NCBI RefSeq assembly: GCF_022701215.1
Contig: NZ_CP089976.1
Span: forward strand, 30,001-62,000
Length of the DNA stretch: 32,000 bases
Direction of reading: 5' to 3'
Origin: Moraxella nasovis
GTDB lineage: Bacteria > Pseudomonadota > Gammaproteobacteria > Pseudomonadales > Moraxellaceae
Part shown: positions 1 through 22,320 of the stretch, piece after piece
Numbering within the stretch: position 1 is the stretch's first letter
Layout of the letters: each line of letters starts with the position of its first letter
The notes under the pieces: model-generated
Database searches by the model: none
Told to the model about the DNA's origin: nothing
The model's input: the letters and a program-made list of their open reading frames with translations, nothing else
Program-made: the position numbers and the translations under genes

Positions 1-1619
1 AAACTAGCAAGAGAGGAGCCACCTATCTTATCAAGCAAAGACGATTTTTCTTCAGATTTCACCTTAAGATCGTTTATACCATCCTCTAAGGACCCTTTTC
101 TTTTGTTTAATTTATCAAGTTCATCTTGAGTGACAAGCTCATTAGCTGACCCCTCCAACACGTTTTCAGCGATGTTTGATCTCTCATCAATTTCAGCAGC
201 AACAGCATTGATCATACCGTTTTCATTAACACTATCTACCTCCACTGCATGTTTTGGCTTATATGAAAATTGGTATAAAGCATCTACATCTTCAATATTA
301 CAATTATGGACAGTAACTCTATTGACTCTTGAATGCTCGCCAATATCTGCACCAAACAATTTGTGAGTTACCTCATCTTTAACCATATCTTGGCTTTGCG
401 ATACATCGACAGACTCCCTAATATTAGCCAGACCCTCAACATCTTGATTTTTACTGATATCTTGGTAGGCTTTGGTGCTAAGTTTTGCACTCAAATTCTC
501 TTTTTTAGATGATTTTTGACCTAACTTTGAGGCAGCTTTTTTTACCAAATGCCCTACACCATAAAGCAAATAAACACCGAGTGGGAGCACTTCTTTTTTC
601 TCTTTATGCTCACCTTGCATGATGGGTCTTGTTTTGGGGGCAGGGGACATTAAATACACAGAACCTTCACCCTGCCTCTTATTATTCAACTTCTCATACA
701 ATTCATTTTTTCGCTCAGATATATGGTCAGTAAGAGGATTGTTTGCAACACCCAAATCTTTATCAGCAATAGCATCTCTTTCATCTCCCTGTAAGGACTG
801 CTCTGCCTTATTGTCATATTCCCTCATATTGGCTTGTTGCTCAATATTTTTTTCTTTATTAAAGGTCTTGCTAAAGGACATGGGGACCTCAAGCATATTG
901 CGTCCTTCCCCCTGTCTGATTGCCTCCTCCATCACGCCTGCAAGAGAATCATCTTCAAACCCATATCCGTAATCTTCCATGAAATGAGCTAGCCGAATCC
1001 CACTCTCTTGATTATCCCTTATATACACTTCAAGATTTTTATAAAACTTATCCGCTTCTTGTTTATCTTCATTTTGATCAGCAAAACCAAACCCTCGAAA
1101 ATGATTAAAGTCTTCCCATTTAATCCCTTTTTCACTAATGTGTAATTTACCATTTGAATCACATATGATAAAAGAGTTGATATGGTTTGTGTGTGAAGCC
1201 TCAAGCCAATGCTTGCCATGCTGTTTAAAATCATTTATCAAAGGATTCTTTGCCACTTCTCTTTTAAACTCATCGCGCAAATCATCTAAAAACGTTAACT
1301 TTTGTTCAGGATCCTCTATACTCCTATTAGATTCATACAGATTATGCTTTAAGATTGTATTTGTGATTTTTTTGACATCTTCATGCTTTACATAACCATT
1401 ATCTTGAACGTATTGATAATCAATACCCTGAATACCTTCGCCTTTTTTGCCTAAGGCAATCCAATTAGCAAATTCTATATTTTTTTGAATAAGGTCATAC
1501 TTATCTTGATATTTATCAAGATACTCTTGCTTTTTCCTATCTTTTATATCAAATAACAAATCACCAAAAATATCGGCACGCTCATCACCGTTTTTAAACT
1601 CATTTAAACTGTCTACCAT
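1..1619 (-). CDS. hypothetical protein, >=539 aa, 3' end beyond window start (absent from supplied ORF track)
   Basis: Hand translation of the minus strand from ATG 1619-1617 (MVDSLNEFKNGDERADIFGDLLFDIKDRKKQEYLDKYQ...) stays open to position 3. No tta/cta/tca triplet occurs in that phase (checked codon by codon for 1-660, and by translation of the reverse complement for the rest). A G6 run lies 3 nt upstream of the ATG and is SD-like. The gene starts 33 nt after the stop of 1652..4216 on the same strand. The + strand track ORFs at 130, 619 and 1138 all share one phase, typical of antisense shadows. No recognisable motif (no Walker A). Confidence 0.7.
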   Translation of the reverse strand, partial: MVDSLNEFKNGDERADIFGDLLFDIKDRKKQEYLDKYQDKYDLIQKNIEFANWIALGKKGEGIQGIDYQYVQDNGYVKHEDVKKITNTILKHNLYESNRSIEDPEQKLTFLDDLRDEFKREVAKNPLINDFKQHGKHWLEASHTNHINSFIICDSNGKLHISEKGIKWEDFNHFRGFGFADQNEDKQEADKFYKNLEVYIRDNQESGIRLAHFMEDYGYGFEDDSLAGVMEEAIRQGEGRNMLEVPMSFSKTFNKEKNIEQQANMREYDNKAEQSLQGDERDAIADKDLGVANNPLTDHISERKNELYEKLNNKRQGEGSVYLMSPAPKTRPIMQGEHKEKKEVLPLGVYLLYGVGHLVKKAASKLGQKSSKKENLSAKLSTKAYQDISKNQDVEGLANIRESVDVSQSQDMVKDEVTHKLFGADIGEHSRVNRVTVHNCNIEDVDALYQFSYKPKHAVEVDSVNENGMINAVAAEIDERSNIAENVLEGSANELVTQDELDKLNKRKGSLEDGINDLKVKSEEKSSLLDKIGGSSLAS

Positions 1620-1651: not shown

Positions 1652-4216
1652 CTAAAAACCCACACCCATATCCAAACTTGTCTCATGATGGGGCTTTTTT
1701 GAGATGGCTAAGTCCTCCCCCAACTTCATACCCAAATCTACATTGTCTACAGTTAAATCACCAAAAGACATACCAGACAAGTCTTCTGTACCTATATAAA
1801 AAAGGGATAAATCTTGCTCTTTATAAGAAAGGGCTAAATCTTGCTCTTTTTTTCTTTCGTACTCAATAATTTCAATATCAAAGCTCAAAAATGGCTTTGT
1901 ACCCAGTGATTCTTGAGGATTTTTAACAAATTGCTCAAATTGTTCAAAATTATTAGCATTTTGTTTATCACTCTTAGGGTCTGGTAGTACCGCTCTTAAA
2001 GAATCATGGGTAGGAAGTGTAATCTGCACTTCAAGGTTATTCTCGTGGGATTTTAAGGCCAACTGCTCATGCACAATCTTCATTTCTTGATCTGCTCGAC
2101 TTTGAATAATATTCTGAACAAGTCTAGAGGCAAATAAATCTACACGCTCACCATCTTTGTCATAGGTGATGGTTGTTGAATTGCCAAACCCTCCTTCTTT
2201 AAGCTGTATATCCGGGTAAATCATCTGGTCCCCCGTATCATAGACAACCACTAATTCAAGTGGTCCTGATGGGGGTGCCAAATTTGGCTTAACAAAGTTT
2301 TCGTGAAATTCCAATGCAAAATTCGCTTCTTTACTGTCTTGCAGTAAATCAACAGGCTTGATACTTGGTTTATCAGTTGGTCTTATCAAAATCTGTATGA
2401 CATTGCCTGGAGTGCCTAAACTCATCTGTGCTTCTTTATTCTCCAAACCTTGTTTTAAAAAATCATCAACCCGCTCATGTGTTTGAGCAATCTCAGGAAA
2501 GTCTTTTTTAAACTCATTGATATAAGCGCGAGACTCCTCCACACTCCAGCCCGTCTTAGCGGACAACCCACCTGCCCCTTGACCGTATAAAGAAGAAATA
2601 ATAAGCACCTTAGATTGCTTTCTTTTTTCCTCAATATCTTGCACAAGGGTGGGGTCGTGGGTATGGGGGTCGTCAAGAATATACCGTATTTCTTTTGCTT
2701 TTTGTTCATCACTAGCGTGCCGAGCAGATAATTCTTTTTTAGCTACCATACCAGAATAAATATCTACGTTTTTCTGTACCATTTGTTGAATGGTTTTTAT
2801 ACCCAAAACATCAGCAGCAGTTCTTACTTCAAGCTGCTGACCATCAAAATCCATTGCAACATAGCCATCTTTAGGAACAATACATTCTTTTGCATTAGCC
2901 GTTAAACCCTGAAAATTTATCTTAAAGGTATCTAAAGGAGTGTGTCTGCCAGTAATTGCTCCATAAGCATTGATAGGTATCGGTATTCCACCTTCATGTT
3001 CTTGAGCCAATGCTTTAAGCTTTACCAAGTTTTGCATGGGGTATGTATAAGCATTGTACGCACTTCTTAATTCAAGTAAGCTTTGAACATAAGACAGTCT
3101 GTTCTTTTCATATTCACTGGCATCATCAGCTAAAGTATATTGCTTTAAAAAGAGCGTTTCTTTTGATTTATGAGAGGTTAGTTTCTCAATATTAGCCGCT
3201 TGACCTGTTTTTTGAGTTAAATCATCAAACCACCTAGGATTAACCAAGGACTCCCCTTGACTGCCATAAGCAGCAAGCAAACTATCCTTAAAAGCTATAG
3301 GGTAGCTAATACTGATTAAATCAGGGTTATCTAGGATAAATTGAACGTTTGCATTAATTAACTTGTGATGATGATTTTTGGTGTGATTTTCAACCAGGGG
3401 ATCAGAACTTGATATTTTTTGAAAATTTAAATGTTTCTGCCTAAAATCTTGTTTTAAAGACAATTCTAAGTCTATAACCTTATCTTGATCCAAGTGCAAG
3501 CAGGGTTCATTGTGTTGCATTCTAGCTATTTGGTCAGAAATAAGACAAGCACGATGAAAAGCCTTGGTTCCAGGGTTATCGTTTTGATTGCCATAAGCAA
3601 AAGGTGCCTCAAAATGTTCCTTCAAAGACAAATAACCCATTGCTAAGATTTTGCCATCAGTATAATTTTTTTGAAATTCGCCAGGGGATACAGACTTTAA
3701 AAACTCATTATCTTTTTTAGTCCTTTCATTTAAAAAATCAACAACAATCTTTTTACCCTGTGTCTGTTCATCATTAAGTAGTTGCTTGACATCCATATCA
3801 TTTATAATAGACAATTCATGTTTTGTTTGAACACTTCTGTTTTTTGCCTCAATGAGTTTTCTTTTAAACAAACTATGTTCAGCAGACAACCTAGAGCCAT
3901 CTCTTGCTGCGAGGGTGGGTAGGTGGGTTGCCTTATATAAATCCTGGATATTTACAAATCTAACTGTCATGTCATCGGGTCTGACACCCAAATAATCTGC
4001 GATATCACCTGGGGTTACATCATCACTGTGCACTAAATGGGTTGCATCAAGTGGTTTGTTGGTAATATCAGCAGTTAAAAAAGACTTTAAAACTTCTATG
4101 TCTGGATCCGCCCTACGAACGGTATTTGTTTTGGAGTCCACAACCCAAAACTCAGGACTTTCATCTTTTAAATCCTGTGTGTTTTTTGGCCAAGATATAG
4201 TAACTACATTTGTCAT
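1652..4216 (-). CDS. divergent family-A (Pol I-like) DNA polymerase domain protein, 854 aa
   Basis: The C-terminal half carries the ordered family-A motifs. TGR: YGAITGRHTPLDTFKINFQGL (aa 418-437; compare TGRLSSSDPNLQNIP). Motif A: VAMDFDGQQLEVR (D458, E463, R465; compare DYSQIELR). Motif B: RKQSKVLIISSLYG (R532, K536, Y544-G545; compare RxxxKxxxFxxxYG). Motif C: LPTHDSL (H737-D738; compare HDE). The N-terminal ~415 aa has no motif I recognise, and no Exo I-III motifs were seen. Confidence 0.65.
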   Translation of the reverse strand: MTNVVTISWPKNTQDLKDESPEFWVVDSKTNTVRRADPDIEVLKSFLTADITNKPLDATHLVHSDDVTPGDIADYLGVRPDDMTVRFVNIQDLYKATHLPTLAARDGSRLSAEHSLFKRKLIEAKNRSVQTKHELSIINDMDVKQLLNDEQTQGKKIVVDFLNERTKKDNEFLKSVSPGEFQKNYTDGKILAMGYLSLKEHFEAPFAYGNQNDNPGTKAFHRACLISDQIARMQHNEPCLHLDQDKVIDLELSLKQDFRQKHLNFQKISSSDPLVENHTKNHHHKLINANVQFILDNPDLISISYPIAFKDSLLAAYGSQGESLVNPRWFDDLTQKTGQAANIEKLTSHKSKETLFLKQYTLADDASEYEKNRLSYVQSLLELRSAYNAYTYPMQNLVKLKALAQEHEGGIPIPINAYGAITGRHTPLDTFKINFQGLTANAKECIVPKDGYVAMDFDGQQLEVRTAADVLGIKTIQQMVQKNVDIYSGMVAKKELSARHASDEQKAKEIRYILDDPHTHDPTLVQDIEEKRKQSKVLIISSLYGQGAGGLSAKTGWSVEESRAYINEFKKDFPEIAQTHERVDDFLKQGLENKEAQMSLGTPGNVIQILIRPTDKPSIKPVDLLQDSKEANFALEFHENFVKPNLAPPSGPLELVVVYDTGDQMIYPDIQLKEGGFGNSTTITYDKDGERVDLFASRLVQNIIQSRADQEMKIVHEQLALKSHENNLEVQITLPTHDSLRAVLPDPKSDKQNANNFEQFEQFVKNPQESLGTKPFLSFDIEIIEYERKKEQDLALSYKEQDLSLFYIGTEDLSGMSFGDLTVDNVDLGMKLGEDLAISKKPHHETSLDMGVGF
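1801..1849 (-). repeat. in-frame 27-bp-period tandem duplication (22-bp core aaaggg[a/c]taaatcttgctcttt x2) in 3' end of polymerase-like gene
   Basis: Cores at 1801-1822 and 1828-1849 are 21/22 identical. They encode KEQDLALSY / KEQDLSLFY in the acidic C-terminal tail. Confidence 0.8.
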
Positions 4217-4345
4217 GATGATACCAGTTGTTGATTTTAGTTTATATTACAAATGTGGAGTGGAGGGGTTGATAGCACTAACAAGCCGTCTAGATTGCAA
4301 AAAGCAAACCCGTGCAGCACCATATAGGGGCTAGTGTACAACACG

Positions 4346-4367
4346 GCTTGCCAATCAGCTTGCCAAT
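4346..4367. promoter_or_regulatory. direct repeat GCTTGCCAAT x2 (12-bp period) in divergent intergenic region
   Basis: gcttgccaat ca gcttgccaat lies between the polymerase operon start (4216, -) and ORF 4528 (+). It is a possible protein-binding site; function unknown. Confidence 0.3.
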
Positions 4368-4512
4368 TACCTAAATTCAGTTTATACTATTAAATATAAC
4401 TTAACACTATTTTAAGTTAGTGTCAATTCTGAATAACCAGATTAAGGTATTGGATTCATGTCTAATTCCCCGGCTTTAAAAATCACTCATTTTTTTTCAT
4501 CAATATAGAAAA

Positions 4513-4557
4513 ATAATATTTTTAATATTGTTAATATTGTTAATATTGTTAATAATA
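4513..4557. repeat. 9-bp tandem repeat TTAATATTG (3 perfect copies at 4522-4548 plus degenerate flanking copies)
   Basis: The sequence reads directly as taatatttt ttaatattg ttaatattg ttaatattg ttaataata. It overlaps the annotated TTG start of ORF 4528. Confidence 0.85.
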
Positions 4558-5031
4558 TGTGTAATTTTTATAGCTTACCAACTGCTATCCGAACCAAAAC
4601 CTCGAACTTATAGCGACTATTTTGAAACAGCTGATGAGGTTATTCTGATTGAGGAGTCAGCCACAAAAATATCTGGCGCATATTCAGGTCTCGAACATCA
4701 AATGGGAACCGAAGCTTATGAAGCATTGGTATTAGGAATTCCTGTCAGTCCTGAAAGTGAATTTTACAAAACCCAGCAGCAAACGTTTGGGTCGGCTATC
4801 AACGAGGCAAAGCACGCAAGTAGTGTTGTTGCTGAACACGAAAGTCAAATTCAACAAAAGGGCGGGCTAGTTGATTTAAATGATCTGCAAAGTTTTGATA
4901 CAGGACGAGTTTTAGATCCTGAAACGAGAAAATCGATACTGAGTATGACAGGTGAGTCTACCAGCATCTCCGAAACCAAGGTTGAAACTGAGGAATCGGG
5001 TGAAAATAGAATTTTAGCCTCACAAGATTGA
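4528..5031 (+). CDS. hypothetical protein (possible N-terminal membrane anchor); start uncertain
   Basis: 167-aa ORF. The N-terminal hydrophobic stretch MLILLILLIICVIFIAYQLL is translated from the 9-bp AT-rich repeat, so it may be artefactual. The first in-frame ATG is at codon 59. No recognisable domain. Confidence 0.4.
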   Translation: MLILLILLIICVIFIAYQLLSEPKPRTYSDYFETADEVILIEESATKISGAYSGLEHQMGTEAYEALVLGIPVSPESEFYKTQQQTFGSAINEAKHASSVVAEHESQIQQKGGLVDLNDLQSFDTGRVLDPETRKSILSMTGESTSISETKVETEESGENRILASQD

Positions 5032-5195
5032 GTGGACTAATAATTGTAAAAAAAAATCCACCTAGCGGTGGTCGATAAGCTATGAGTGCGAAAACCATAG
5101 CAATGTTTGACAAATTTACAAAAAGCGGGGGGGGTTTTAGGAAGGGTTTGGGCAAACATCGGCTAACTCACGAGACGAGCTTACTAAAATTATTT

Positions 5196-5335
5196 GTCAT
5201 ATTTGATAGTAAAATTTGCGTCAATCCGTCATATTTTAGCGTCAATCTTTATTTAAATAAAAATAATAAAATATTCTTTTTTTTTATTTTAAAAAAATAA
5301 TTTAAAACAATTATTATTCTTTAATTAAGGGCCTT
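5196..5335. promoter_or_regulatory. oriV-like region: iteron-like direct repeats followed by an extreme AT-rich tract
   Basis: GTCATATTT occurs at 5196 and 5228. GCGTCAATC occurs at 5218 and 5239 (21-bp spacing). About 85 bp that is almost pure A/T follows (5248-5330), immediately upstream of the Rep_3-like gene. This is the layout typical of iteron-type theta origins. Confidence 0.4.
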
Positions 5336-5342
5336 TGTTTTC

Positions 5343-5373
5343 CTTGACAAGTCAAGATAGGCGGTGCGACAAT
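5343..5373 (+). promoter_or_regulatory. putative rep promoter with perfect palindrome CTTGAC-AA-GTCAAG overlapping the -35
   Basis: TTGACA at 5344-5349, an 18-nt spacer, then GACAAT at 5368-5373 (4/6 match). The palindrome at 5343-5356 is a plausible autorepression operator. The promoter overlaps the GTG at 5364, which argues for the ATG at 5409 as the start. Confidence 0.4.
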
Positions 5374-5408
5374 ATCACGCTCTTCCTATTTCTAACAACC
5401 GAAAGATC

Positions 5409-6638
5409 ATGACTATCCAAGACTTCCAACCAACCCCAGAAAGACTATCCAAGCTAGAAGAAAAGATGGCAGCTTATGATTCTTCTTCTGAACAGCAAAT
5501 AGATAGAAGATCTTACTTTGAACTTGCTATACAACAAATTATGGAAGAAGAAGAACAAAAAGTAGCTGCTAAACCTTCAGACCCCGTAGACATACTTTAC
5601 AATTCTTTGTTTTCAAAAAAAGAAAACAGCCCATCACCACTCCCCCCAAAAGAACAAATCAAAGAAGAAAACAACAATAATCCCATATTTCAATCACCAA
5701 CATCCTTTAAAAAAGAAAAATATGAGATTATTCTGATAAATAGATTTTTACATGCTTTGACTGGTTTATCCAGTATTCAAAGAAAATATATAACTTTTTT
5801 CGTTTCAGTTAATAAAGAATTTTTTAATAACAAAAAAGAATTATTATATTCTTTTAATATTAAAGCAGAGCAATTTATATTTTCTTGTCAAGAAAATATA
5901 AACGAAAGAAATGTTGAGCGGACTTACCAAGAGTTATCTGAAATAACCGAATCTCTTCTTCAAAGATATTTTCATCATAAAGAGTGTTTGCTTGAAGATC
6001 GACCAGTCACAGTAAGCACTTCATGGATTGTCAGCGCCTGTTTTTCAAAACAAGATCATTCTATAGTTATTACAATTTCTCATGAAGTGGCACAGCTACT
6101 AGACACTTTTAATAACTATTCATTTTTTAACAATGATCATAAAAATATATTATTTGATTTAACCGGGCACTCGGTGTTGTTGTTTGAGCTTGTTATAAGA
6201 AACTTAATACAAGGACACACACGAGTTAAGATGAGTATTGATTATTTAAGAGAGTTTTTCGATTGCACACATAGCTACTCTAATGTCTCAGATTTTAAAG
6301 CTTATGTGATTGATAAATCCATTAGTGAAATAAGCCAAAAAACATCACTTAGTATTACTTACACACAAGAAAGAACATCTCGAGTGGTGACGGATTTACT
6401 ATTTACCTTTCAAGATAGAAATGCCACAACCCAGCATCCCAATCAAAATACATCAATTGGGGTGTTAAAAACGCCTGAGGTTGGGTTTTCTATGACTGAA
6501 GATGATCTTTATCTATATTCTCAAAAAATTGCAGCAGCTTTAGATAAAACAGCTCAACAAGTAAGATTAGAACTATTAGACCCCCTTCAACAAAAACAGC
6601 ATATTCCTTTTTTAAAACTACTGGGATATAAATTCTAA
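5409..6638 (+). CDS. plasmid replication initiator, Rep_3 (RepB/iteron-binding) family-like
   Basis: Rep_3-like layout: INRFLHALTGLSSIQRKYITFFVS ... HSVLLFELVIRNLIQGHTRVKMSIDYLREFFDC..YSNVSDFKAYVIDKSISEISQKTSLSITYTQERTSRVVTDLLFTF (compare the conserved ...Y..f.dfk.rvl.pai.Ein..t.l.v.y...k.gr.v..l.F). It has a ~110-aa low-complexity N-terminal extension. The track ORF begins at GTG 5364; the ATG at 5409 is preferred. Confidence 0.65.
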   Translation: MTIQDFQPTPERLSKLEEKMAAYDSSSEQQIDRRSYFELAIQQIMEEEEQKVAAKPSDPVDILYNSLFSKKENSPSPLPPKEQIKEENNNNPIFQSPTSFKKEKYEIILINRFLHALTGLSSIQRKYITFFVSVNKEFFNNKKELLYSFNIKAEQFIFSCQENINERNVERTYQELSEITESLLQRYFHHKECLLEDRPVTVSTSWIVSACFSKQDHSIVITISHEVAQLLDTFNNYSFFNNDHKNILFDLTGHSVLLFELVIRNLIQGHTRVKMSIDYLREFFDCTHSYSNVSDFKAYVIDKSISEISQKTSLSITYTQERTSRVVTDLLFTFQDRNATTQHPNQNTSIGVLKTPEVGFSMTEDDLYLYSQKIAAALDKTAQQVRLELLDPLQQKQHIPFLKLLGYKF

Positions 6639-6655
6639 ATCATCTAAGCGTTAAA

Positions 6656-6692
6656 AACCCACTAATAGAAAAAAAATAGTGGGTTTTTTTTT
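6656..6692 (+). terminator. rho-independent terminator after rep
   Basis: Stem aacccacta (6656-6664) pairs with tagtgggtt (6677-6685), followed by a T-run. Confidence 0.7.
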
Positions 6693-6930
6693 ATTTTTAA
6701 AAAAAATTACAAAAGTTTACAAATATTTTTAATGAACGATTCTTCGCTATGACTGCTGATAATCGTTTACTATTGTTTAGTTTTTTCTAATTACACTATT
6801 GACAAAAACTTAATTATATTTTATTGTTAGTTTGTGTTGTAAGTATTGTTTACACAACTTTCAAAATAAGGTAGTGGGCTATACTCAACTCAACCAATCC
6901 TTAAATAAGGCCTATTTCAAGGTGTAGATT

Positions 6931-7347
6931 ATGAATGTAAAAAATAAATTAGAGCGTATGACACATGTTACCAATCATACCGTTACAAAGCTATGGGTAC
7001 TAGCGGCATTATTGCCTATGACTTTAGTTGCACGTGCCCAATCTTCAAATAAAAAAAATTATCTGGATCAACTTGCAGATGCAAATGGCGTCAATTTAAA
7101 TAAAAATGGCTCTATTACTAATTCTCTGAATGACTTTAAGACATTTGGTACATCCTTTTTTGAAATTGCAGCAATCGCTGCTCTATTAGGCGGGATTCTC
7201 TTTGCCATTATTAGCCTTGTTAATATCATCACAAAAGGCAAAAATGGTCAGCCTACCGGTCCTTATTGGTGGAGATTATTAGGTGCTATAGGTATGGTAT
7301 ATCTTGTCTATGTTAACTTTGTTAGCAAAGCAGCATCAGGTGGCTAA
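6931..7347 (+). CDS. small membrane protein: signal-peptide-like N-terminus plus two TM helices (VirB2/TrbC-pilin-like or holin-like topology)
   Basis: The N-terminus KLWVLAALLPMTLVARA|QSS contains an AxA motif. Hydrophobic segments are FFEIAAIAALLGGILFAIISLVNII and WWRLLGAIGMVYLVYVNFV, separated by the short loop KGKNGQPTGPY. The C-terminus is glycine-rich (ASGG). The call rests on topology only, with no sequence-level family match. Confidence 0.6.
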   Translation: MNVKNKLERMTHVTNHTVTKLWVLAALLPMTLVARAQSSNKKNYLDQLADANGVNLNKNGSITNSLNDFKTFGTSFFEIAAIAALLGGILFAIISLVNIITKGKNGQPTGPYWWRLLGAIGMVYLVYVNFVSKAASGG

Positions 7348-7374
7348 GTTTCAAACTAACACCAAGTTCAAAAG

Positions 7375-7509
7375 CTGTTCCTTAAAACCTAGCTAAACCT
7401 ACCTATAAGGTAGGTTTAGCGTTTAATTTACTTCAATGTTGTTTGCCTTATTTATTTAAACTTGGACTTAGCAACTCCATAGGCGTTTTTAATTGGGGAT
7501 AAAACTTAC
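7375..7509 (-). repeat. inverted repeat copy A (135 bp), solo IS-end (RE/omega-RNA-like) sequence
   Basis: It aligns to the reverse complement of 10739-10875 with 8 mismatches and one 2-nt indel (hand alignment). It contains a perfect 12-bp-stem hairpin, ctaaacctacct-ata-aggtaggtttag. Confidence 0.9.
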
Positions 7510-7559
7510 TAGCTGTTGATGATGGTATAGATTTTTCTGAATTTAAGGCAGGTTCTCCG

Positions 7560-8519
7560 ATGTTAAAATTGACAGAACAGTCACCAAAACACATCATTGA
7601 GACAATTGCCAATTCTAGATACGGCAATCCTACATGGGATCAGGCAAGAATGAGTTTAAATTCAAAAGGTTTGATGAGCGAATATCTCATGATGGATGCT
7701 CAAGAAAACTTCATCCGCCAACAAACAGCTATCGTACGACAAAGAATAGAGGCAGTATTGGCAGTCATTGGTAACGCTAATTTAGTTGAGTTTGGTAAAA
7801 AAATTCAGGCTATGCAGGTAACGGCGGAAGCTGGAAAAGTGCCGACTGTTATTGATTTACAGCTGGAGGCAGGTGGTGATGAGTATGTTGACTCAGGTTA
7901 TTGGTCGCAAGGTGGAGCTGGAGATGGTGCTGAATGCACACCAACTGCAAATGACGGTAAATCGACTTCAGTTGCTGTTAAAATGTCGGAAGCGATATTT
8001 ATGGGTGATAGCCTAGCAGAAGCTTATCGTGCCGATGCAAGATACGCAAAGCGAGGAAGAAATCCAAGCCAAGTATTGAGTTATCTTAAAAACGCAGGAG
8101 ATCTAAAAGGAAAAACAGTTGTAATTTCTACCGGATTAAGTAATAATATTAAAGACATTGCATCTGTTGAAAAACAAATGCAATATTTAAGTCAATCTGG
8201 TGCAAATGTGGTTGTACTTGGGATTGTTGATAATTTTAAAAATGACATACAGCTTGCAAGCAAAACCAATGCATTTTTATCACAACAAGCGTCAAAGTAT
8301 GGTTTTGGCTTCCAAAGGGTGGGAAATTGGCAGCGCGGTGATGAAGCTTATAAAGCTCACCCGAAAAATTTAACAGAAAGTCAGTTTGTTAGGGCGAGTT
8401 CTAACACGGGTGTATCCACTACATCTTGTGAAAATGTTTCGCATGAGAGTGCTCCGTACACATCAGGAGCGGCACCCAAAGGCTTTACGCCTGATAAAGC
8501 TGAGGTTATTAAAAAGTAG
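7560..8519 (+). CDS. hypothetical protein with GDSL/SGNH-hydrolase-like motif; probably the upstream part of a frameshifted gene continuing to 8941
   Basis: Contains FMGDSLAE (GDSL block I) and ISTGLSNN (a block resembling G-x-N). The frame is open upstream to 7503, abutting repeat A, so the gene may be 5'-truncated. It ends at TAG 8517-8519, right after an A5 run. Confidence 0.6.
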   Translation: MLKLTEQSPKHIIETIANSRYGNPTWDQARMSLNSKGLMSEYLMMDAQENFIRQQTAIVRQRIEAVLAVIGNANLVEFGKKIQAMQVTAEAGKVPTVIDLQLEAGGDEYVDSGYWSQGGAGDGAECTPTANDGKSTSVAVKMSEAIFMGDSLAEAYRADARYAKRGRNPSQVLSYLKNAGDLKGKTVVISTGLSNNIKDIASVEKQMQYLSQSGANVVVLGIVDNFKNDIQLASKTNAFLSQQASKYGFGFQRVGNWQRGDEAYKAHPKNLTESQFVRASSNTGVSTTSCENVSHESAPYTSGAAPKGFTPDKAEVIKK

Positions 8520-8941
8520 CCGCTAATATTGGGGCTAATCCTAACGATTTAGCAGCTGTGATTTCCTTTGAGACTGGAGGCACATTTTCTCCTTCTATAA
8601 GAAACCCAGGGTCGTCAGCTACAGGTTTAATCCAATTTATGAAAGGATCTGGAGGAACTAAAGGGCTTTATTATGGCATGACAAGAAATCAATTTGCGTC
8701 TTTGAGTTTTAATACTCAAATGATCTATGTAGAAAAATATTTTAAAGAAAGAGGTTTTAGAGCCAATAAACCACAGAACGTCGCAAACCTTTACACAACG
8801 GTCACTGGGTATGGTTACAAACGTGGCTTCAAAGCTTATGAAAAAAATAAAGTATGGGATAGTAACCGTGATGACTATATAGCTAAAGGTGAGATGGTAA
8901 GAAACGCTGCCTTTAGAGCACATCAGAAAAAATATTTTTAA
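8513..8941 (+). CDS. SLT/lytic-transglycosylase-like domain (track ORF starts GTG 8558; frame open from 8513)
   Basis: KVAANIGANPNDLAAVISFETGGTFSPSIRNPGSSATGLIQFM matches SLT hallmarks (catalytic E-[ST], then A-x-GL-x-Q). Conserved-looking residues lie upstream of the GTG. There is no SD and no ATG, and the frame is -1 relative to 7560..8519. Confidence 0.6.
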   Translation, partial: KVAANIGANPNDLAAVISFETGGTFSPSIRNPGSSATGLIQFMKGSGGTKGLYYGMTRNQFASLSFNTQMIYVEKYFKERGFRANKPQNVANLYTTVTGYGYKRGFKAYEKNKVWDSNRDDYIAKGEMVRNAAFRAHQKKYF

Positions 8942-16121: not shown

Positions 16122-17033
16122 TTAGTTTAATGCTAATAGGTGCTTAATTACGCTTAGCAATAGTACAATTAAAAACACCAAACGCCCTACTAAGACGTTT
16201 TGCCTAAAGGCACTAAAGCACGCCATACGCTCACGAGTCTTAATAAGCTGATACTGCCGATAAAATAAAATACCAAGTAAAGCAGACAGTAAGCCTACCC
16301 CCACTAAAGCATAATCGGTGAAATAATGCCAAATAGCCAACGCCATCAGTAAGCTAAACACGGTATTTAACAGCATAATTACTGCCACATCATACTTACC
16401 AAATAAAATGGCGGTGGATTTTACGCCTATTTGCAAATCATCGTCTTTATCGCACATCGCATAAGCGGTATCATACGCTACTGTCCAGCACATATAGGCG
16501 ATGAACAGCACCCACCCCCATAATCCCACATATCCTTGTACTGCCACGAACGCCATCGGAATCGCCCAGCCAAATGCTGCTGCTAACACCACTTGGGGTA
16601 AGTGCGTATAACGCTTCATAAAGGGGTAAATGAACGCCAAGAACACCGCCCCAAGCGACCAATAAAACACGGCAATCGGCAAAAAAAACAGCAAGCACGC
16701 AGATAATAGCGATAAACCCAAAAAGGTCAAAACCGCTGTGCGTGGCCGTAGTCTACCATCAGCAAGTGGGCGATTTTTGGTGCGTTTGACATGCCCATCA
16801 ACTTTACGATCAGCAAAATCATTAATCGCACAGCCTGCTGCTCTCATCAGCACCGCCCCAAGCGTAAAAATCAGCACAAGCTGGATACTTGGCAGCTGAC
16901 CTGTCGCCCCAAACTGTGCAAGAAATACCGCCCATAATGTCGGATATAATAACAGCTCTGTCCCAACAGGTTTATCAAACCGAGTAAGCTGTATCCATGC
17001 AATGAGTTTATCTTGAAATTGGGTGTGTATCAT
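16122..17033 (-). CDS. ubiA: 4-hydroxybenzoate octaprenyltransferase
   Basis: [23 protein letters not shown] prenyltransferase motif in a polytopic membrane protein of ~300 aa. Confidence 0.85.
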
Positions 17034-17070
17034 ATGGATTATTAATAAGTTGTGTGGTCATTAGGCTTAT

Positions 17071-17946
17071 TTATTCATGCAGGCGGACGATGACAGTTGC
17101 CATACGCCCTGTCGCTTTTTTTTGGTGATGTGTCTGATGACGATAAGAATAAAACCGCTCATCTTGGTAGGTGCATGGCGTCGCTGCACCCATGATATTA
17201 ACATCTAGTGCAGCCAGCTGTAATTTGGTTAATGTCACAAGATCAATCAGGCATTTATCGTTACGGCTGTCTTTGATAATCACTTTTTTTAGTTGCACTG
17301 CTGACAGCTTGGTCAAGTTTTGATCGGTGCAGTCAGTGATGATTTTATTTGCCAGCACTTGGTCTACTTCATAACTTGATTGGTGAATGCACGCACCGAT
17401 GATAGCATGCAATTTGGCAGTCTGATCAAACTGTTTGGCAGTTTTGGCAATAATACCTGATGCTAGCCCTTGCCAGCCAGCATGGATACATGCCACCTGT
17501 TCTGCTTTAGGGGTAAAAAGCGTGATGGGCACGCAATCTGCCGTCATGATGGCAAGAGCCTTGCCCGCTGTTCGTGTGATCATCGCATCGGCGTTATCGG
17601 GCAAAAGCCTTAGGTCGGCTGTATCTACATCGATGACCATATCGCTATGAATCTGATTAAGCCAGACAATCTCATCAATCCCACCACCGCCAAGCTGATT
17701 AAGATTTATTAGTAAATCCATGCGGTTTTGTAGTACATGGCTTGGGCTATCTTTTACATGAAGTGCAAGATTATAGCTGCCATATAGATCGCTTGGACTT
17801 GTCTTATCAAACTTTTGTGCAGTCGTCTGCACGATAAGCACATACTGATCTTGGTATAATACGATAGGATTCTTAGCAGATGTCATGGCAATTATTTTAT
17901 CAAAATTAGGTTGGGCTTGGTGTGCCAGTTTAGTTATTAAACACAT
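17071..17946 (-). CDS. pgeF: peptidoglycan editing factor PgeF/YfiH (DUF152, laccase-domain protein)
   Basis: Motifs QIHSDMV, TADCVPI, HAGWQG and FYSYR. It lies immediately downstream of rluD, as in E. coli. The true start may be ATG 17886 (MTSAKN), which avoids the overlap with rluD. Confidence 0.75.
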   Translation of the reverse strand: MCLITKLAHQAQPNFDKIIAMTSAKNPIVLYQDQYVLIVQTTAQKFDKTSPSDLYGSYNLALHVKDSPSHVLQNRMDLLINLNQLGGGGIDEIVWLNQIHSDMVIDVDTADLRLLPDNADAMITRTAGKALAIMTADCVPITLFTPKAEQVACIHAGWQGLASGIIAKTAKQFDQTAKLHAIIGACIHQSSYEVDQVLANKIITDCTDQNLTKLSAVQLKKVIIKDSRNDKCLIDLVTLTKLQLAALDVNIMGAATPCTYQDERFYSYRHQTHHQKKATGRMATVIVRLHE

Positions 17947-18952
17947 GGATTAAGGCGACAATATCACTTGGCAAAGGAGCAAAAAACTCCACCGCATCGC
18001 CTGTTGCTGGATGGATAAATCCTAGCGTATGAGCGTGTAATGCCTGACGTGGGAAGTCTTGAATGGCTTGGCGTTGCTCTGTGGTGAGTGTGCCTTTTTT
18101 GGTTGGTGAGCCATAGACTTTATCACCCACTAAGGGAAAGCCTTTATGTGATAAATGCACACGAATCTGATGTGTTCGCCCTGTCTCAAGGCGAACATCA
18201 AGCAAGCTGTGCGTATCGCTAAGAGCAGTCGCCCGAACGATGTGCGTTACAGCAGGCTTGCCGCTGTCTTTTACAGCCATCTTCGTCCGCTGAGTGCTGT
18301 GCCTGCCAATCGGTGCATCAATTAACGCATGGCGTAAGATGTCAGCAGGCGTGCCTGACACAATACACTGATAATGACGATATACGGACTTATCTTTTAG
18401 TTGGTTGGTTAACTCAAGCTGTGCTGATTTGGTTTTTGCCACCACTAAAAGCCCTGTGGTGTCTTTATCAATGCGATGCACAAGCCCTGCTCGTGGCAGA
18501 TGGGCATTATCAGGGTAGTGGTATAACAAGGCATTGACCAGTGTTCCTGTGCGATTACCCGCTCCAGGATGGACGACCATACCCGCAGGCTTATTAATGA
18601 TAATGACATGATCATCTTCATATACTATATCAAGTGTGATATTCTCTGGCAGATCGTTTGAGTGATCTTCAAACGCTGCCAATAAACTTAACACATCGCC
18701 TTGCCTGACAGCATACTTTGGCTTTTGTGTGGCTTGATTTACAAGTAATGAGCCATCATTAATATAGCCTTGTAATTGCACTCGTGAAAAACCATCAAAG
18801 GCAAGGCTTGCCATCTTATCTAGGCGTGTACCGACGTCCTTATCTAAGACTTGGTAACTAAGCTCAATATGCTTTGTTGGTGAATCCACTTCTGCTTTGT
18901 CATATTCTGACCCGTTTGGCTCAGCTACGGTGTTATCGTCTTGTGTTATCAT
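17930..18952 (-). CDS. rluD: 23S rRNA pseudouridine synthase RluD
   Basis: S4-like N-terminal domain with the HRIDKDTTGLLVVAK catalytic motif, and divergent from bamD. Confidence 0.85.
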   Translation of the reverse strand: MITQDDNTVAEPNGSEYDKAEVDSPTKHIELSYQVLDKDVGTRLDKMASLAFDGFSRVQLQGYINDGSLLVNQATQKPKYAVRQGDVLSLLAAFEDHSNDLPENITLDIVYEDDHVIIINKPAGMVVHPGAGNRTGTLVNALLYHYPDNAHLPRAGLVHRIDKDTTGLLVVAKTKSAQLELTNQLKDKSVYRHYQCIVSGTPADILRHALIDAPIGRHSTQRTKMAVKDSGKPAVTHIVRATALSDTHSLLDVRLETGRTHQIRVHLSHKGFPLVGDKVYGSPTKKGTLTTEQRQAIQDFPRQALHAHTLGFIHPATGDAVEFFAPLPSDIVALIHVFNN

Positions 18953-19147
18953 AACTTTAAAATTTGTACTAAAATTGGGCTACTTTATCATATTTATTGG
19001 CAGTTTTCCTAAAATTTTATCCAAAAGTTAGGGTTCGTATAAATTGATGGTTTTTTAACTATAAATTGTGGTAAACTAAATGGCGTTTAGCTTTTGGATT
19101 TACCGACTTGTAAATGCCAAATCTTTAAATCATCAAGAGTAAAATAT

Positions 19148-20206
19148 ATGAAAACCAATCACTCTTTAAAAGTTTTATCTGTCGCCATGTTAGCTGGTAC
19201 TTTGGCTTTATCTGGCTGTTCAACCCTAAAAAGTATCGTTGGCAAAAAAGACAATAAAATCACCATCAGTGCCGAACAATCTGAACTTAGCTATTATGAG
19301 CAAGCCCAAGCCGCCCTAGAAAAAGGCAATTACCACGAAGCAATTAAGACGCTTGGCGATGCTCGCACTTTTTATCCCACAGGCACGCACGCTCAGCAAG
19401 CACTGCTTGATCTAATCTATGCACAATATCAAGCTGGTGACTATGAAGCGGTCAGTAACAGTACGGCAGAATTTCTTCGTCTATATCCGACCAGCCGACA
19501 CTTAGATTATGTGCTGTACGTCCAAGGTGTCACTCATATGGGCGGTTCACCAAAAGCATCTCGCTTATTTAAGCTTGATCAGTCGCAGCGTGATGTATCA
19601 TGGCTACAACTTGCTTTTAATAATTTTCAAGTATTGGTTAATAACTTTCCAAACAGCAACTATGCTCCTGATGCTGCTCAGCGTATGATAGCAATCTATA
19701 ATGATCTTGCCGAGCATGAAATGGTGGCGGCACGTTGGTATGTGAAACGTGATGCTTATGTGGCAGCAGTAAACCGTGCTAAATGGGTTTTTCAGTATTA
19801 TCCCCAATCTGAAAGCACCCCTGAAGCAATCGCTGTGTTGGCTTATAGCTATGATAAACTTGGCATGACTACAACCGCAGAACAGTATAAGACGCTATTA
19901 CAAATCAACTACCCAAGCTATCTAAATGCCGATGGCTCTGTCAAATTACCAAACCAAAAATCAACATCATTTACCAAGCGTCTCCTTAATACCGTGACTT
20001 TACACAAGTTTGACAAAAAAGCAGACACACAAGGCGTAGTTAGCTCATATAATGGTCAAACTCGCAATCAGGTTATTCATCAAGCAGGTGGACTACCACC
20101 ACTACCAAGTCAGCCAGCAGAAATGGATGATAGCAAAGAGCATATGAGTATGCCTATCCAAGAAAAGCGTAGGCATATTGGTCTAAGTCTGCCAGATCAG
20201 CAATAA
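19148..20206 (+). CDS. bamD: outer membrane protein assembly factor BamD (ComL/YfiO) with long C-terminal extension
   Basis: Lipoprotein signal MKTNHSLKVLSVAMLAGTLALSGC (lipobox LSGC). TPR-like body (YYEQAQAALEKGNYHEAI..., RLYPTSRHLDYVLY). Start moved to ATG 19148. Confidence 0.8.
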   Translation: MKTNHSLKVLSVAMLAGTLALSGCSTLKSIVGKKDNKITISAEQSELSYYEQAQAALEKGNYHEAIKTLGDARTFYPTGTHAQQALLDLIYAQYQAGDYEAVSNSTAEFLRLYPTSRHLDYVLYVQGVTHMGGSPKASRLFKLDQSQRDVSWLQLAFNNFQVLVNNFPNSNYAPDAAQRMIAIYNDLAEHEMVAARWYVKRDAYVAAVNRAKWVFQYYPQSESTPEAIAVLAYSYDKLGMTTTAEQYKTLLQINYPSYLNADGSVKLPNQKSTSFTKRLLNTVTLHKFDKKADTQGVVSSYNGQTRNQVIHQAGGLPPLPSQPAEMDDSKEHMSMPIQEKRRHIGLSLPDQQ

Positions 20207-20212
20207 TGCCAT

Positions 20213-20245
20213 AAAAAGACCGATCGTTGGTCGGTCTTTTTATTG
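20213..20245 (+). terminator. rho-independent terminator after bamD
   Basis: aaaaagaccga-tcgttgg-tcggtcttttt forms an 11-bp stem followed by a T-run. Confidence 0.75.
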
Positions 20246-20256
20246 AATGTATCGCT

Positions 20257-22320
20257 ATGCAGATTTCTGAATCCGTCATTGAGCAGCTCAACAGTCATGC
20301 CGATCTTGTCGGCATGATTAGAAAGCACACCGCCTTAAAGCCAGCTGGTAGAGAGCTTAAAGGCTGCTGCCCTTTTCATGGCGAAAAAACCCCTTCTTTT
20401 TTTGTAAATCCCCAAACCAATCTGTATTACTGCTTTGGGTGCGGTGCTAAAGGCAATCCAATTACCTTTTTAAGAGAATTGGAACGCATGACTTTTATCG
20501 AAGCGGTTAAGCATTTATCCGACCAAACAGGCATCGAACTTCCAAAGGATGATGAGTTTGCCAAAAAAATCAGCTACAAAAAGTCTGCCAAATCTAAACC
20601 TGTATTTCAATCATCTGCTAAGCCATCTATTAATCCACCAAATCAGCATTTAAACTCACAATCAACAACTGCACAGTCAAATAATATACAAAATAATAAC
20701 AACGTCATTACAAATGAACCATTTGATACTATTTTTACTGACGAAGATAAAATATCTGATGGTGCTTTTATCATTAATCAAGTCGAAGATGAACAAGGCG
20801 ACTTATACACCCTACTGGCAAATGTCTGTCGTTATTATCAATCTCAGCTGTGGAATACACCATTTGCGTTATCCTATTTTCAAAATCGTGGGCTAACACA
20901 AGAAACTATCCATACCTTTGAGCTTGGTTTTGCACCGCATGGTTGGCAAGTGCTAACCCAAGCATTCGCCCAAGATCTAGAAGGTCTAAAAATTTTAGGA
21001 CTGGTTCGCCAATCTCAAAAGACGGGAGAATATTACGATTTTTTTCGTGAACGAGTGATATTTCCTATTAAGGATAGACAAGGACGAGTAGTCGGCTTTG
21101 CGGGGCGTTCATTGGGTGACGACATGCCAAAATACATCAATTCATCTGAGTCACCCGTCTTTCAAAAACAGCATATCTTATATGGGCTTTATGAAGCTCG
21201 CCAAGCCAAGGCAAATGATTTTTTGATGGTCGAAGGCTACATGGATGTAATCGCATTGCACCAAGCAGGAATTTATGGAGCGGTCGCACCGATGGGTACA
21301 GCAGCTAATGAACGCCAAATCGCCCAGCTTCTTAAATATAACGACGTGCTGACCTTATGTTTTGATGGTGATAACGCAGGTCAAAGAGCAGCTTGGCGAA
21401 CACTCGAAGTAGCAGCTCCAGTACTGCCTGATGGCAAGCAGTTAAAATTTCTCACCCTGCCTAATCAGCATGATCCAGACACTTTTATTAAGCAACATGG
21501 TGCTGCTGCGATGGTAGAGCAGATTGCTCATGCGTCTAATCTATCAGATTACGTCTTTGGTGTCCTAGCACGTCGTTATGATTTAAAGCTGCCTGAAAAT
21601 AAAGCTGCCGCTATGGCAGAGCTTAAGGAGCTTGCTGCTAAACTGCCCAAAGGTTCTAGCTTTAGATGGTGGCTTAATAACGACATTTACCAAAAATTAA
21701 GCGGCAAAAATCTCCAAAAAACGCAGCTGCTTGATCAAGCAAACTACGACACGAATGTCAATCATAATATTCAGCTGTATTTGTGCTTATTATACGCTCC
21801 ACAAATTTTACTGACAGACCCACTAAGCGATATTTTAACGCAATCAGGTGCAGTCGATGTACATGCTGATTTTATTGATAAGTTAGAACAGCAGGAACTA
21901 CATCTACCAGAGTTACCGACTTGGAAGAGTATCGGCGATGAAGCCTTATCTTTGTTTGTTTCTACCATTAAAGAGTTGATAACACTAAGTCAAAGCATGG
22001 ACTTGGCAGGGTTTGATTTAACCGATACAGACCCAAAGAATCGAGCTTACTTTATTATTGCAAGCTTGCCAAACCCATCTTTACAAGACATGCTCGCCAG
22101 TCAGTGGCAAGATTTTTATCAGCAAATCAGTCAGCAAAGCGTCAATATCCAATTTTTATTCCAAGAGCTTCTTAGTCAAGCACTGCAAGAAACCTTGCAA
22201 AAACAACACAAAAATAGCAAAAATCTCATTTTATCAGAAATTCATAAACGCCGATTGCAAGCGGTAATTCATTGGGATAAGCATAATAAATCTAAGCTTG
22301 CAAAACTGTTGGATACTTAG
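20257..22320 (+). CDS. dnaG: DNA primase
   Basis: Zinc ribbon CCPFHGEKTPSFFV...YYCFGCGAKG, and TOPRIM motifs EGYMDVIAL and FDGDNAGQRAA. Start moved to ATG 20257 (MQISESVIEQL), downstream of the bamD terminator. Confidence 0.9.
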   Translation: MQISESVIEQLNSHADLVGMIRKHTALKPAGRELKGCCPFHGEKTPSFFVNPQTNLYYCFGCGAKGNPITFLRELERMTFIEAVKHLSDQTGIELPKDDEFAKKISYKKSAKSKPVFQSSAKPSINPPNQHLNSQSTTAQSNNIQNNNNVITNEPFDTIFTDEDKISDGAFIINQVEDEQGDLYTLLANVCRYYQSQLWNTPFALSYFQNRGLTQETIHTFELGFAPHGWQVLTQAFAQDLEGLKILGLVRQSQKTGEYYDFFRERVIFPIKDRQGRVVGFAGRSLGDDMPKYINSSESPVFQKQHILYGLYEARQAKANDFLMVEGYMDVIALHQAGIYGAVAPMGTAANERQIAQLLKYNDVLTLCFDGDNAGQRAAWRTLEVAAPVLPDGKQLKFLTLPNQHDPDTFIKQHGAAAMVEQIAHASNLSDYVFGVLARRYDLKLPENKAAAMAELKELAAKLPKGSSFRWWLNNDIYQKLSGKNLQKTQLLDQANYDTNVNHNIQLYLCLLYAPQILLTDPLSDILTQSGAVDVHADFIDKLEQQELHLPELPTWKSIGDEALSLFVSTIKELITLSQSMDLAGFDLTDTDPKNRAYFIIASLPNPSLQDMLASQWQDFYQQISQQSVNIQFLFQELLSQALQETLQKQHKNSKNLILSEIHKRRLQAVIHWDKHNKSKLAKLLDT

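Follow-up and report, generated by a model that had tools for sequence, protein, structure and literature searches.

The window analysed here is a stretch of 32,000 nucleotides of the Moraxella nasovis genome (assembly GCF_022701215.1, contig NZ_CP089976.1, positions 30,001 to 62,000 of the forward strand), and coordinates given without a locus name refer to it. Near its beginning lies a minus-strand gene for a protein of 854 amino acids (aa), an intact open reading frame (ORF) that is identical to the NCBI entry WP_242747812.1, 'DNA polymerase [Moraxella nasovis]'. This protein is identified here, from its sequence and from a structural model, as a genuine and extremely divergent DNA polymerase of family A (Pol A). 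Its gene is part of an AT-rich element with a replication initiator of the Rep3 family, integrated in the M. nasovis chromosome, and in all relatives the corresponding gene is the first of an operon for secreted proteins of the TraW family. The gene and its product are divided as follows:

1652..4216, minus strand: whole polymerase gene, 854 aa
3542..4216, minus strand: N-terminal domain, aa 1-225, at the place of the 3′-5′ exonuclease, with no DxE, Nx3D or Yx3D motifs
1847..3541, minus strand: family A polymerase domain (palm base, enlarged thumb, fingers and palm), aa ~226-790, delimited with hhalign, AlphaFold2 (AF2) and Foldseek
2945..2953, minus strand: TGR motif, aa 422-424 (R424 invariant in the family)
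2822..2851, minus strand: motif A, DFDGQQLEVR, aa 456-465 (D458 metal ligand, E463 steric gate)
2582..2623, minus strand: motif B, RKQSKVLIISSLYG, aa 532-545 (I540 at the Klenow F762 position, also called B3)
2000..2008, minus strand: motif C, HDS, aa 737-739 (H737 and D738 invariant)
1652..1846, minus strand: acidic C-terminal tail, aa 791-854, of low model confidence

A divergent polymerase domain and its N-terminal companion

The TGR sequence and the motifs A, B (RxxxKxxxxxxxYG) and C follow each other in the order that family A requires, at the very residues given in an earlier note on this DNA, which had been written from the letters alone. Motif C has Ser in place of Glu as its third residue, and Ile occupies the position of Klenow F762, again as that note had it; a QNxxQ motif is also kept in the polymerase domain. 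The Pfam profile DNA_pol_A (PF00476), whose use had been proposed as a check, matches the protein with an E-value of 1.2e-13 and 51.3 bits, above the cut-off of 34.3, and the best PHROG is PHROG 17 'DNA polymerase' (E 5.6e-15), whereas the equivalog of bacterial Pol I (NCBIfam PRK05755) reaches only 18.4 bits against a cut-off of 720. Since the motifs are in place, the Pfam score exceeds its cut-off and that of the Pol I equivalog falls far below its own, the protein is placed in family A as a very divergent member.

A search of Protein Data Bank (PDB) sequences with the single polymerase sequence gave marginal matches only. With a profile of the family of seven lineages to which the protein belongs (described below), hhalign aligned it to Pol A profiles with probabilities of 99.7-99.9% and E-values down to 4e-31; one of these alignments (99.7%, E 2.9e-26) spans the family columns ~220 to ~790 and opens at the very first helix of the template polymerase domain. 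An AF2 model computed from an alignment of 24 sequences has a predicted template modelling score (pTM) of 0.69 and is confident over aa 215-790, the model from the single sequence not being usable (predicted local distance difference test, pLDDT, 32). A Foldseek search with the alignment-based model, the other check that had been suggested, returned Klenow-like structures, namely Aquifex Pol I and the large fragments of KlenTaq and Bst (E ~1e-12; target-normalised TM-score of 0.55 for 8jrb and KlenTaq), together with phage enzymes that combine exonuclease and polymerase domains (E down to 5e-14).

In the family alignment the invariant residues are D92, R424, D458, E463, D485, Y487, R532, K536, Y544, G545, N702, Q705, H737 and D738. 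The polymerase domain is complete, and from these conserved residues it is predicted to be catalytically competent. The steric-gate glutamate of the Klenow enzyme is E710, and E463 is read as its counterpart; its invariance predicts a DNA polymerase that uses deoxynucleoside triphosphates. The ratio of non-synonymous to synonymous substitution rates (dN/dS) is ~0.19 within one lineage, a value from few substitutions (16 synonymous and 12 non-synonymous); by region, the polymerase domain gives ~0.15 and the tail a higher value.

The earlier note had set apart an N-terminal half of 415 aa as unrecognisable, which holds for part of it. Because the profile alignment starts at the first helix of the polymerase domain, the thumb and the palm base account for aa ~220-415, that is for ~190 of these residues, and only aa 1-225 appear to be free of detectable homology. 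The absence of Exo I-III motifs and of a 5′-nuclease domain, also reported from the first inspection, was confirmed. The carboxylates of DEDD exonucleases (PF01612), found in Exo I (DxE), Exo II (Nx2-3(F/Y)D) and Exo III (Yx3D), were not detected in the window protein, and a Pfam scan of its 854 aa gave no 5′-nuclease domain (no PF01367 or PF02739). An hhalign comparison of the N-terminal domain with exonuclease and Pol I N-terminal profiles gave no match, a PDB profile search with aa 1-225 returned nothing credible, and PF01612 matches weakly in only one of the seven members (E 0.015). At the Exo I position the family reads SWPKN (in the window protein), SWGPN, FDEK, FEEI, HLADS and FDLNK; D92 is the sole invariant residue of the whole domain and no acidic pair is conserved. 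As the catalytic residues of the exonuclease are missing and no exonuclease profile matches significantly, the polymerase is predicted to be devoid of proofreading.

In a MAFFT alignment the Exo I column receives the first strand of the family and Exo II a 'VxSxxxxxxDFAxxLG' block, with the catalytic carboxylates missing, and AF2 builds an alpha/beta unit over aa 38-100 (pLDDT 70-80) from an input alignment that included exonuclease domains. The N-terminal domain plausibly descends from an exonuclease domain. Local phmmer comparison of the domain gave only weak, non-collinear matches to the 5′-nuclease region of Pol I, which were set aside as noise.

At the other end of the protein, an acidic and disordered tail of ~70 aa with a short hydrophobic-acidic motif is common to all seven lineages. 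In M. nasovis, a 27-bp tandem duplication at 1795-1849 gives the tail the repeated sequence KEQDLALSY/KEQDLSLFY. The hexapeptide QDLSLF contained in it resembles QAMSLF of the E. coli delta subunit, which we take to be a beta-clamp-binding motif; this candidate was dropped because it sits within the lineage-specific duplication and the family does not conserve it.

Place among the family A polymerases

An exhaustive phmmer search over 1.84 billion cluster representatives yielded 21 hits, five of which are full-length relatives (817-949 aa), and a metagenome contig added a seventh lineage, so that the family consists of seven lineages from Moraxella and metagenomes. Polymerase identity among them is 18-30%, with 55% for the closest pair. 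This scarcity bears out the claim that the polymerase is very divergent. Among 185,579 species genomes, M. marmotae was the sole carrier, to which one metagenome locus is added. A word-index homology search with the polymerase found only the query itself and, with the family alignment, only generic Pol I; a polymerase-based locus search of genome contigs found no related loci, and the family alignment contains no stretch of sufficient conservation to serve for such a search. Viral contigs gave no polymerase match, and the phage hits are weak (22% identity over 21% of the polymerase length). A phage origin of the locus was rejected, the PHROG matches being to polymerases only and no viral contig being found.

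When the hhalign results are sorted by group, the E-values are 4e-31 for phage-type polymerases of ~600 aa, 8e-27 for a second group of phage exonuclease-polymerases, and 3e-17 to 8e-21 for bacterial Pol I. The group of ~600 aa is of the KPP25 type: one of its members, P0047, is 33% identical to the polymerase of Pseudomonas phage KPP25 over 99% of its length. The nearest relatives of the family are thus identified, at the level of profiles, as the phage polymerases of the KPP25 and SPO2 types with Leu at B3, which form clusters 12 and 3 in the classification of Pol A enzymes into 19 clusters (Czernecki et al. 2023, PMC10201439). In that classification, the KPP25-like and SPO2-like enzymes are described with Leu at B3, extra beta strands in the fingers and a 'broken thumb' (PMC10201439). 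Spacer lengths (motif A to motif B; motif-B Lys to motif-C Asp), the B3 residue and motif C compare as follows:

Bacterial Pol I: A-B 49 aa; Lys-Asp ~123 aa; B3 F; HDE
Phage-type relatives: A-B 49-68 aa; Lys-Asp 143-187 aa (members with Leu at B3); B3 mostly L, F in three; HDE
Seven-lineage family: A-B 74-95 aa (from the three members with motif A correctly located); Lys-Asp 193-285 aa; B3 I, I, I, N, L, L, I; HDS in 5/7, HDE in 2/7
Window polymerase: A-B 74 aa; Lys-Asp 201 aa

The window protein had been said to exceed Klenow by roughly 25 and 75-80 residues in these two spacers, in good agreement with the measured values (74 vs 49 and 201 vs ~123). With the KPP25/SPO2-like enzymes the family has in common an aliphatic B3 residue, a lengthened, beta-rich stretch from motif B to motif C, and the position of the N-terminal domain. 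As an aliphatic B3 and long spacers are already typical of those enzymes, both traits, which are real, are read as inherited from the phage-type supercluster. The KPP25/SPO2-like enzymes differ in their size of 600-650 aa, in keeping all exonuclease residues and HDE, and in being encoded by phage genomes. In contrast, the larger proteins of the family have a dead N-terminal domain, a larger thumb, a longer Lys-Asp spacer, mostly HDS in motif C and an acidic tail, and none has a phage location. Family-specific, by this comparison, are the HDS motif C, the dead N-terminal domain, the further expansion of thumb and fingers, and the acidic tail. The polymerase is best filed within the phage-type Leu-B3 supercluster, as a variant apparently carried by a pA297-3-like element (see the next section).

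Other Pol A groups were set beside the family as well. Bacterial Pol I (Klenow, KlenTaq, Bst) is alike in fold and catalytic motifs, and in KlenTaq and Bst the exonuclease domain is likewise vestigial, but it possesses a 5′-nuclease domain, has Phe where the window protein has Ile, and its spacers are shorter by 25 and ~78 aa. The APEX 1 and 2 enzymes (clusters 4 and 14, PMC10201439), whose exonuclease domains are inactivated, share with the family a Leu-type B3, an exonuclease domain lacking DxE, and the fact that they do not replace the host Pol I; they are chromosomal and actinobacterial, whereas the family is element-borne and belongs to Moraxellaceae, a separation that is made here by description. 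TV-Pol, a minimal polymerase of 400-600 aa linked to a D5-like helicase/primase (Iyer et al. 2008), is not matched either, as the family has a full thumb, is recognised by the Pol A profile of Pfam and has no helicase neighbour.

An integrated Rep3 element and a conserved transfer operon

Around the polymerase gene, the island in the window encodes the following products, besides small secreted proteins:

1..1619, minus strand: large ORF, >539 aa, 32 nt downstream of the polymerase gene, cut by the window edge
4528..5031, plus strand: protein of 167 aa with one transmembrane (TM) helix, adjoining the polymerase gene, 40-48% identical to its counterparts elsewhere
5364..6638, plus strand: Rep3-family replication initiator (Rep3_C E 1.8e-15, repM_Acin E 2e-22)
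6931..7347, plus strand: small membrane protein, like the pilin-like proteins with 2-3 TM helices of related loci
8558..8941, plus strand: lytic transglycosylase (9udh_A, E 1.3e-15)

The GC content is 36.2% in the island (1 to ~10400) against 41.7% in the rest of the window, which is occupied by housekeeping genes (lysR, ubiB, thiF, prmC, sodA, ubiA and gyrA). This composition and the Rep3 gene, 1.1 kb from the polymerase gene, uphold the description of the place as an AT-rich, plasmid-like island and not a polA locus. A 903-aa ORF at 23010-25721, tried as the host polA, was identified as gyrA. No RNA element of Rfam matches in the window. The lytic transglycosylase ORF, of 127 aa and with a GTG start, has no Pfam hit at E 0.01 and matches 9udh_A from residue 33 onwards; its true start may lie upstream.

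The large ORF that had been seen to follow the polymerase gene at translational closeness begins at 1619 and runs off the window. It has a positional counterpart at every locus, lacks a signal peptide and is the fastest-evolving gene of the operon; among these ORFs, which include L003 12586-15054 and L011 3944-6205, the closest pair is 31-44% identical, and BLAST matches no other pair. Neither it nor the other operon proteins could be assigned in Pfam, NCBIfam or PHROG, and none has a credible PDB sequence match.

On the other side of the polymerase gene, a word-index homology search with the 167-aa TM protein found only the protein itself. At its N-terminal end (region 4458-4560), an ATG at 4458 opens an ORF of 16 codons that stops at 4506, and the homologous frame resumes in +1 after a T8 tract at 4490-4497. 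Loss of one T from the tract would restore a basic N-terminus followed by the TM helix, as in the homologues. This apparent frameshift could reflect phase variation, a sequencing error or decay, and the NCBI annotation has a product of 109 aa only. A 9-bp tandem repeat, TAATATTGT, present in 4.6 copies at 4514-4554, encodes the (L-L-I)n start of the TM helix and is not an intergenic iteron.

A survey of the neighbourhoods of homologues, of the kind that the earlier note had recommended, revealed synteny kept in seven lineages. The gene order common to the six other lineages comprises Rep3 (usually near), the TM protein, the polymerase, a soluble ORF, secreted proteins, a protein of 295-364 aa and HU. 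The TM protein (170-200 aa) always adjoins the polymerase and is 31-57% identical between loci. The soluble ORF that follows the polymerase encodes 630-820 aa and can be aligned between close lineages only; after it come five proteins with signal peptides, three of them paralogous. The HU gene was seen in the four lineages whose loci reach far enough. Past HU, three unassigned genes for proteins of ~160-180, 265-314 and 385-422 aa are shared by M. marmotae (L010 13559-16356) and the metagenome locus (L011 13863-18022). The secreted proteins are 45-81% identical between loci and the polymerase 18-30%, which indicates that the polymerase evolves much faster. Helicase, SSB (which binds single-stranded DNA) and recombinase families gave no hit among the polymerase neighbours at any locus at the sequence level. 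A primase was not detected in the Moraxella loci, where part of each element is visible.

The Rep3 gene lies within ~1-2 kb of the polymerase in L001/L006 and L005. In L003 it is 8 kb off, with cargo between the two, and in M. marmotae there is no Rep3 gene within 10 kb; at both of these loci the polymerase still heads the tra operon. The flank of the M. marmotae operon encodes an IncI-type TrbC coupling protein (NF041447, TrbC_conju E 8.8e-80), an IcmJ/DotN-like protein (E 6e-7) and a TraU-sized protein of 1076 aa with a Walker A motif and weak TraC/VirB4 matches.

Homologues of the secreted TraW paralogues were found in 176-183 plasmids of PLSDB, ~157 of them from Acinetobacter and two from M. 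osloensis; the same database held no homologue of the polymerase. The TraW-family proteins share 31-46% identity with their counterparts in the operons of A. baumannii plasmid pAC1633-1 and M. osloensis plasmid pMOXF1, where the order is a Rep3-like gene (in pAC1633-1), a small TM protein (in pMOXF1), large cytoplasmic ORFs and the TraW genes. It has been reported that this region of pAC1633-1 corresponds to transfer region 1 of pA297-3, with traW, traY, trbA, traJ, traI, traH, traM, traN, traO, icmJ, traU and trbC, that pA297-3 is transferred at a frequency of 7e-2 per donor, and that a primase gene lies downstream of traW, the disruption of which coincided with loss of transfer (PMC7885321). 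The polymerase operon is assigned by homology to a pA297-3-like conjugation system of the IncI/MPF_I (mating-pair formation) type. The context expected of such a system is present in M. marmotae, and the window displays only its Rep3, pilin-like and lytic transglycosylase genes.

The place taken by the polymerase is filled differently in these plasmids. In pAC1633-1 it holds a protein of 1973 aa with a strawberry-notch C-terminal domain (L014 5545-11466), and in pMOXF1 proteins of 755, 906, 1498 and 881 aa (L013 8871-21295); the family profile detected no polymerase at either locus (E above 0.03). Since unrelated large proteins stand there in related plasmids, this slot, with which the traW operon begins, is variable, and the polymerase occupies it only in its own, rare lineage. 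The slot region has the appearance of a variable set of large cytoplasmic, possibly transferred, proteins, and a protein of 1245 aa with an LPD1 domain is encoded after traW in pAC1633-1 (L014 18378-22115). The signal-peptide proteins of the operon (L002 15472-21868, L003 15076-21304, L014 14211-18271), three of which are paralogous to the TraW lipoprotein known from plasmids of the pA297-3 type, are annotated as hypothetical in ~180 plasmids, some of which carry NDM-1 and OXA-58.

Possible roles in conjugative DNA synthesis

In the reading that we favour, and to which we give an even chance, the protein would be a catalytically competent, proofreading-deficient accessory polymerase that serves conjugative DNA synthesis or establishment. 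It would be expressed with the transfer genes as an accessory enzyme of the Dtr (DNA transfer and replication) type and would perform element-specific synthesis tied to conjugation, either strand-displacement replacement synthesis that starts at the donor's nick, or synthesis of the complementary strand, which converts the transferred single strand into a duplex during establishment, or both. The acidic tail probably docks the polymerase to a partner. Such a role would run parallel to that of the plasmid primases Sog (IncI1) and TraC (IncP) and of the primase encoded next to traW in pA297-3-type plasmids. All of these are DNA-synthesis enzymes of transfer regions, which for Sog and the pA297-3-type enzyme are IncI-like (MPF_I), but the primases have an unrelated fold and chemistry and another position in the operon, and a transfer of the polymerase to recipients, as a further parallel, is speculative. 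A function in transfer or establishment is preferred to one in vegetative replication because the gene stays with the start of the tra operon and not with Rep, and because the slot is filled by unrelated proteins elsewhere.

Several points weigh against an accessory role in conjugation. Rep3 lies within a few kb in four of the six loci with enough flank, so that a vegetative role is possible. The window spans only one edge of the element and shows no coupling protein, no ATPase of the VirB4/TraU type and no relaxase; as the element is cut by the window and these genes are not seen, what M. nasovis carries may be a decayed remnant. The adjoining TM-protein gene is apparently frameshifted at the T8 tract. 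Co-transcription with the tra genes is deduced from gene order and short gaps alone, and action in the donor or in the recipient is pure inference. Motif C is HDS instead of HDE in five of the seven lineages, which may affect catalysis.

A vegetative polymerase is the first alternative, which we regard as unlikely. Rep3 would open the origin and the Pol A of the element would extend the first primer, replacing host Pol I as it acts at plasmids of the ColE1, ColE2 and pAMbeta1 types. Plasmids are known to be replicated by host family A polymerases (PMC10201439), and the short distance to Rep3 in the window and at L001/L006 and L005 would fit such a function. However, the polymerase keeps its position at L003 and in M. 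marmotae, where Rep3 is distant or not within reach, and the polymerase is missing from ~180 related plasmids that have the operon together with a Rep3-like gene. Moreover, theta replicons of the iteron or Rep3 type classically have no need of Pol I. The earlier note had envisaged a new clade dedicated to replicating a mobile element; the divergent clade and its tie to the element stand, but a dedication to replication goes beyond the evidence, the gene tracking the tra operon and not Rep.

De novo priming with the help of a small partner has been described for Pol A enzymes of mobile genetic elements whose exonuclease domains are reduced, such as CcPol-MP of SCCmec-like elements (PMC7581432, PMC10061031). 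A Pol A-derived primase-polymerase of this kind, starting de novo on the transferred strand with a partner and perhaps entering the recipient by means of its tail, is a doubtful candidate here. In its favour, CcPol-MP (PolA-SSB) is likewise a divergent family A polymerase of a mobile element (15-22% identity to others), with a compromised exonuclease and a part in the element's own synthesis; the N-terminal domain of our family is remodelled, the acidic tail is conserved in all seven lineages, and a primase gene is reported in the operon of pA297-3-type plasmids and was not detected in the Moraxella loci. On the other hand, CcPol is encoded in an operon with an OB-fold protein and a helicase, beside serine recombinases and in Bacillota, and, comparing by description, no such neighbours exist at the loci of the family, where no OB-fold/SSB partner or helicase was identified beside the polymerase. 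The exonuclease domain of CcPol is truncated, whereas the domain at the exonuclease position of the family is of full length. In addition, the elements are visible in part, so that a primase could sit elsewhere, and a translocation signal is not recognisable by sequence.

A narrower proposal, that the polymerase acts in the recipient because it is exported through an IncI-like type IV system with the help of its acidic tail and/or because it primes de novo like CcPol-MP, seems to us more doubtful still. Such an enzyme would make the incoming strand duplex with no need for the primase and Pol III of the host.

An accessory function in repair, translesion synthesis or anti-defence, by which an error-prone polymerase lacking an exonuclease would be of use to the element or to its host, such as gap filling after restriction or nicking, or mutagenesis, comparable to APEX or mucAB-type enzymes, is improbable. 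APEX-type Pol A enzymes with dead exonuclease domains have been implicated in repair (PMC10201439), the slot in related plasmids holds large proteins of conflict type (strawberry-notch, with LPD1 nearby), and the polymerase and the next ORF evolve much faster than the structural genes. Nevertheless, PADLOC matched no defence model to the polymerase or to its eight neighbours, nothing associated with it was recognised as a nuclease, ligase or sensor gene, and fast evolution would fit partner-specific co-evolution equally well. Finally, a non-catalytic relic, whose fold would now serve to bind DNA or as a scaffold and whose HDS would mark lost chemistry, agrees with the Ser in motif C of five lineages and with the signs of decay in the M. 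nasovis element, but is highly improbable in view of metal ligands, steric gate and O-helix Arg/Lys/Tyr that are invariant at 18-30% identity, of HDE kept in two lineages, of the low dN/dS of the polymerase domain, and of single-subunit RNA polymerases that are active with HDS (D812-S813 in T7 RNA polymerase).

Conjugative plasmids are thought to use the polymerases of their hosts and to bring at most a primase of their own, and a dedicated family A polymerase in a transfer operon, as an accessory role in conjugation implies, would change this picture. If it is true, some elements would also bring the elongation enzyme, with a wider host range or a faster establishment as possible gains; should the enzyme be exported and act in the recipient, a DNA polymerase would be known for the first time as a transferred conjugation protein, and it would be a Pol A substitute for primases of the Sog/TraC type. 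The family also represents a natural experiment on the Pol A fold, combining a dead domain at the exonuclease position, Ile at the sugar-selectivity site, HDS, and an enlarged thumb and fingers, which is relevant for polymerase engineering and would extend the 19-cluster classification. The related operon occurs in ~180 plasmids, mostly of Acinetobacter and some of them multidrug-resistant, with genes that are almost all unannotated, and the variable slot could offer a handle on the establishment of clinically relevant plasmids.

Two of the related loci have further features. The metagenome contig of L011 (25 kb, 511x) includes ~2.7 kb (18434-21170) in which no ORF exceeds 63 aa and nothing matches Rfam, as well as a TnpB gene of the IS605 type (16172-17299). 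The cargo of L003 between Rep3 and the operon (1928-7573) encodes an EcoRI-like methylase, a GmrSD/HNH protein, a protein with OmpA/BamE domains and an adhesin of the YadA type.

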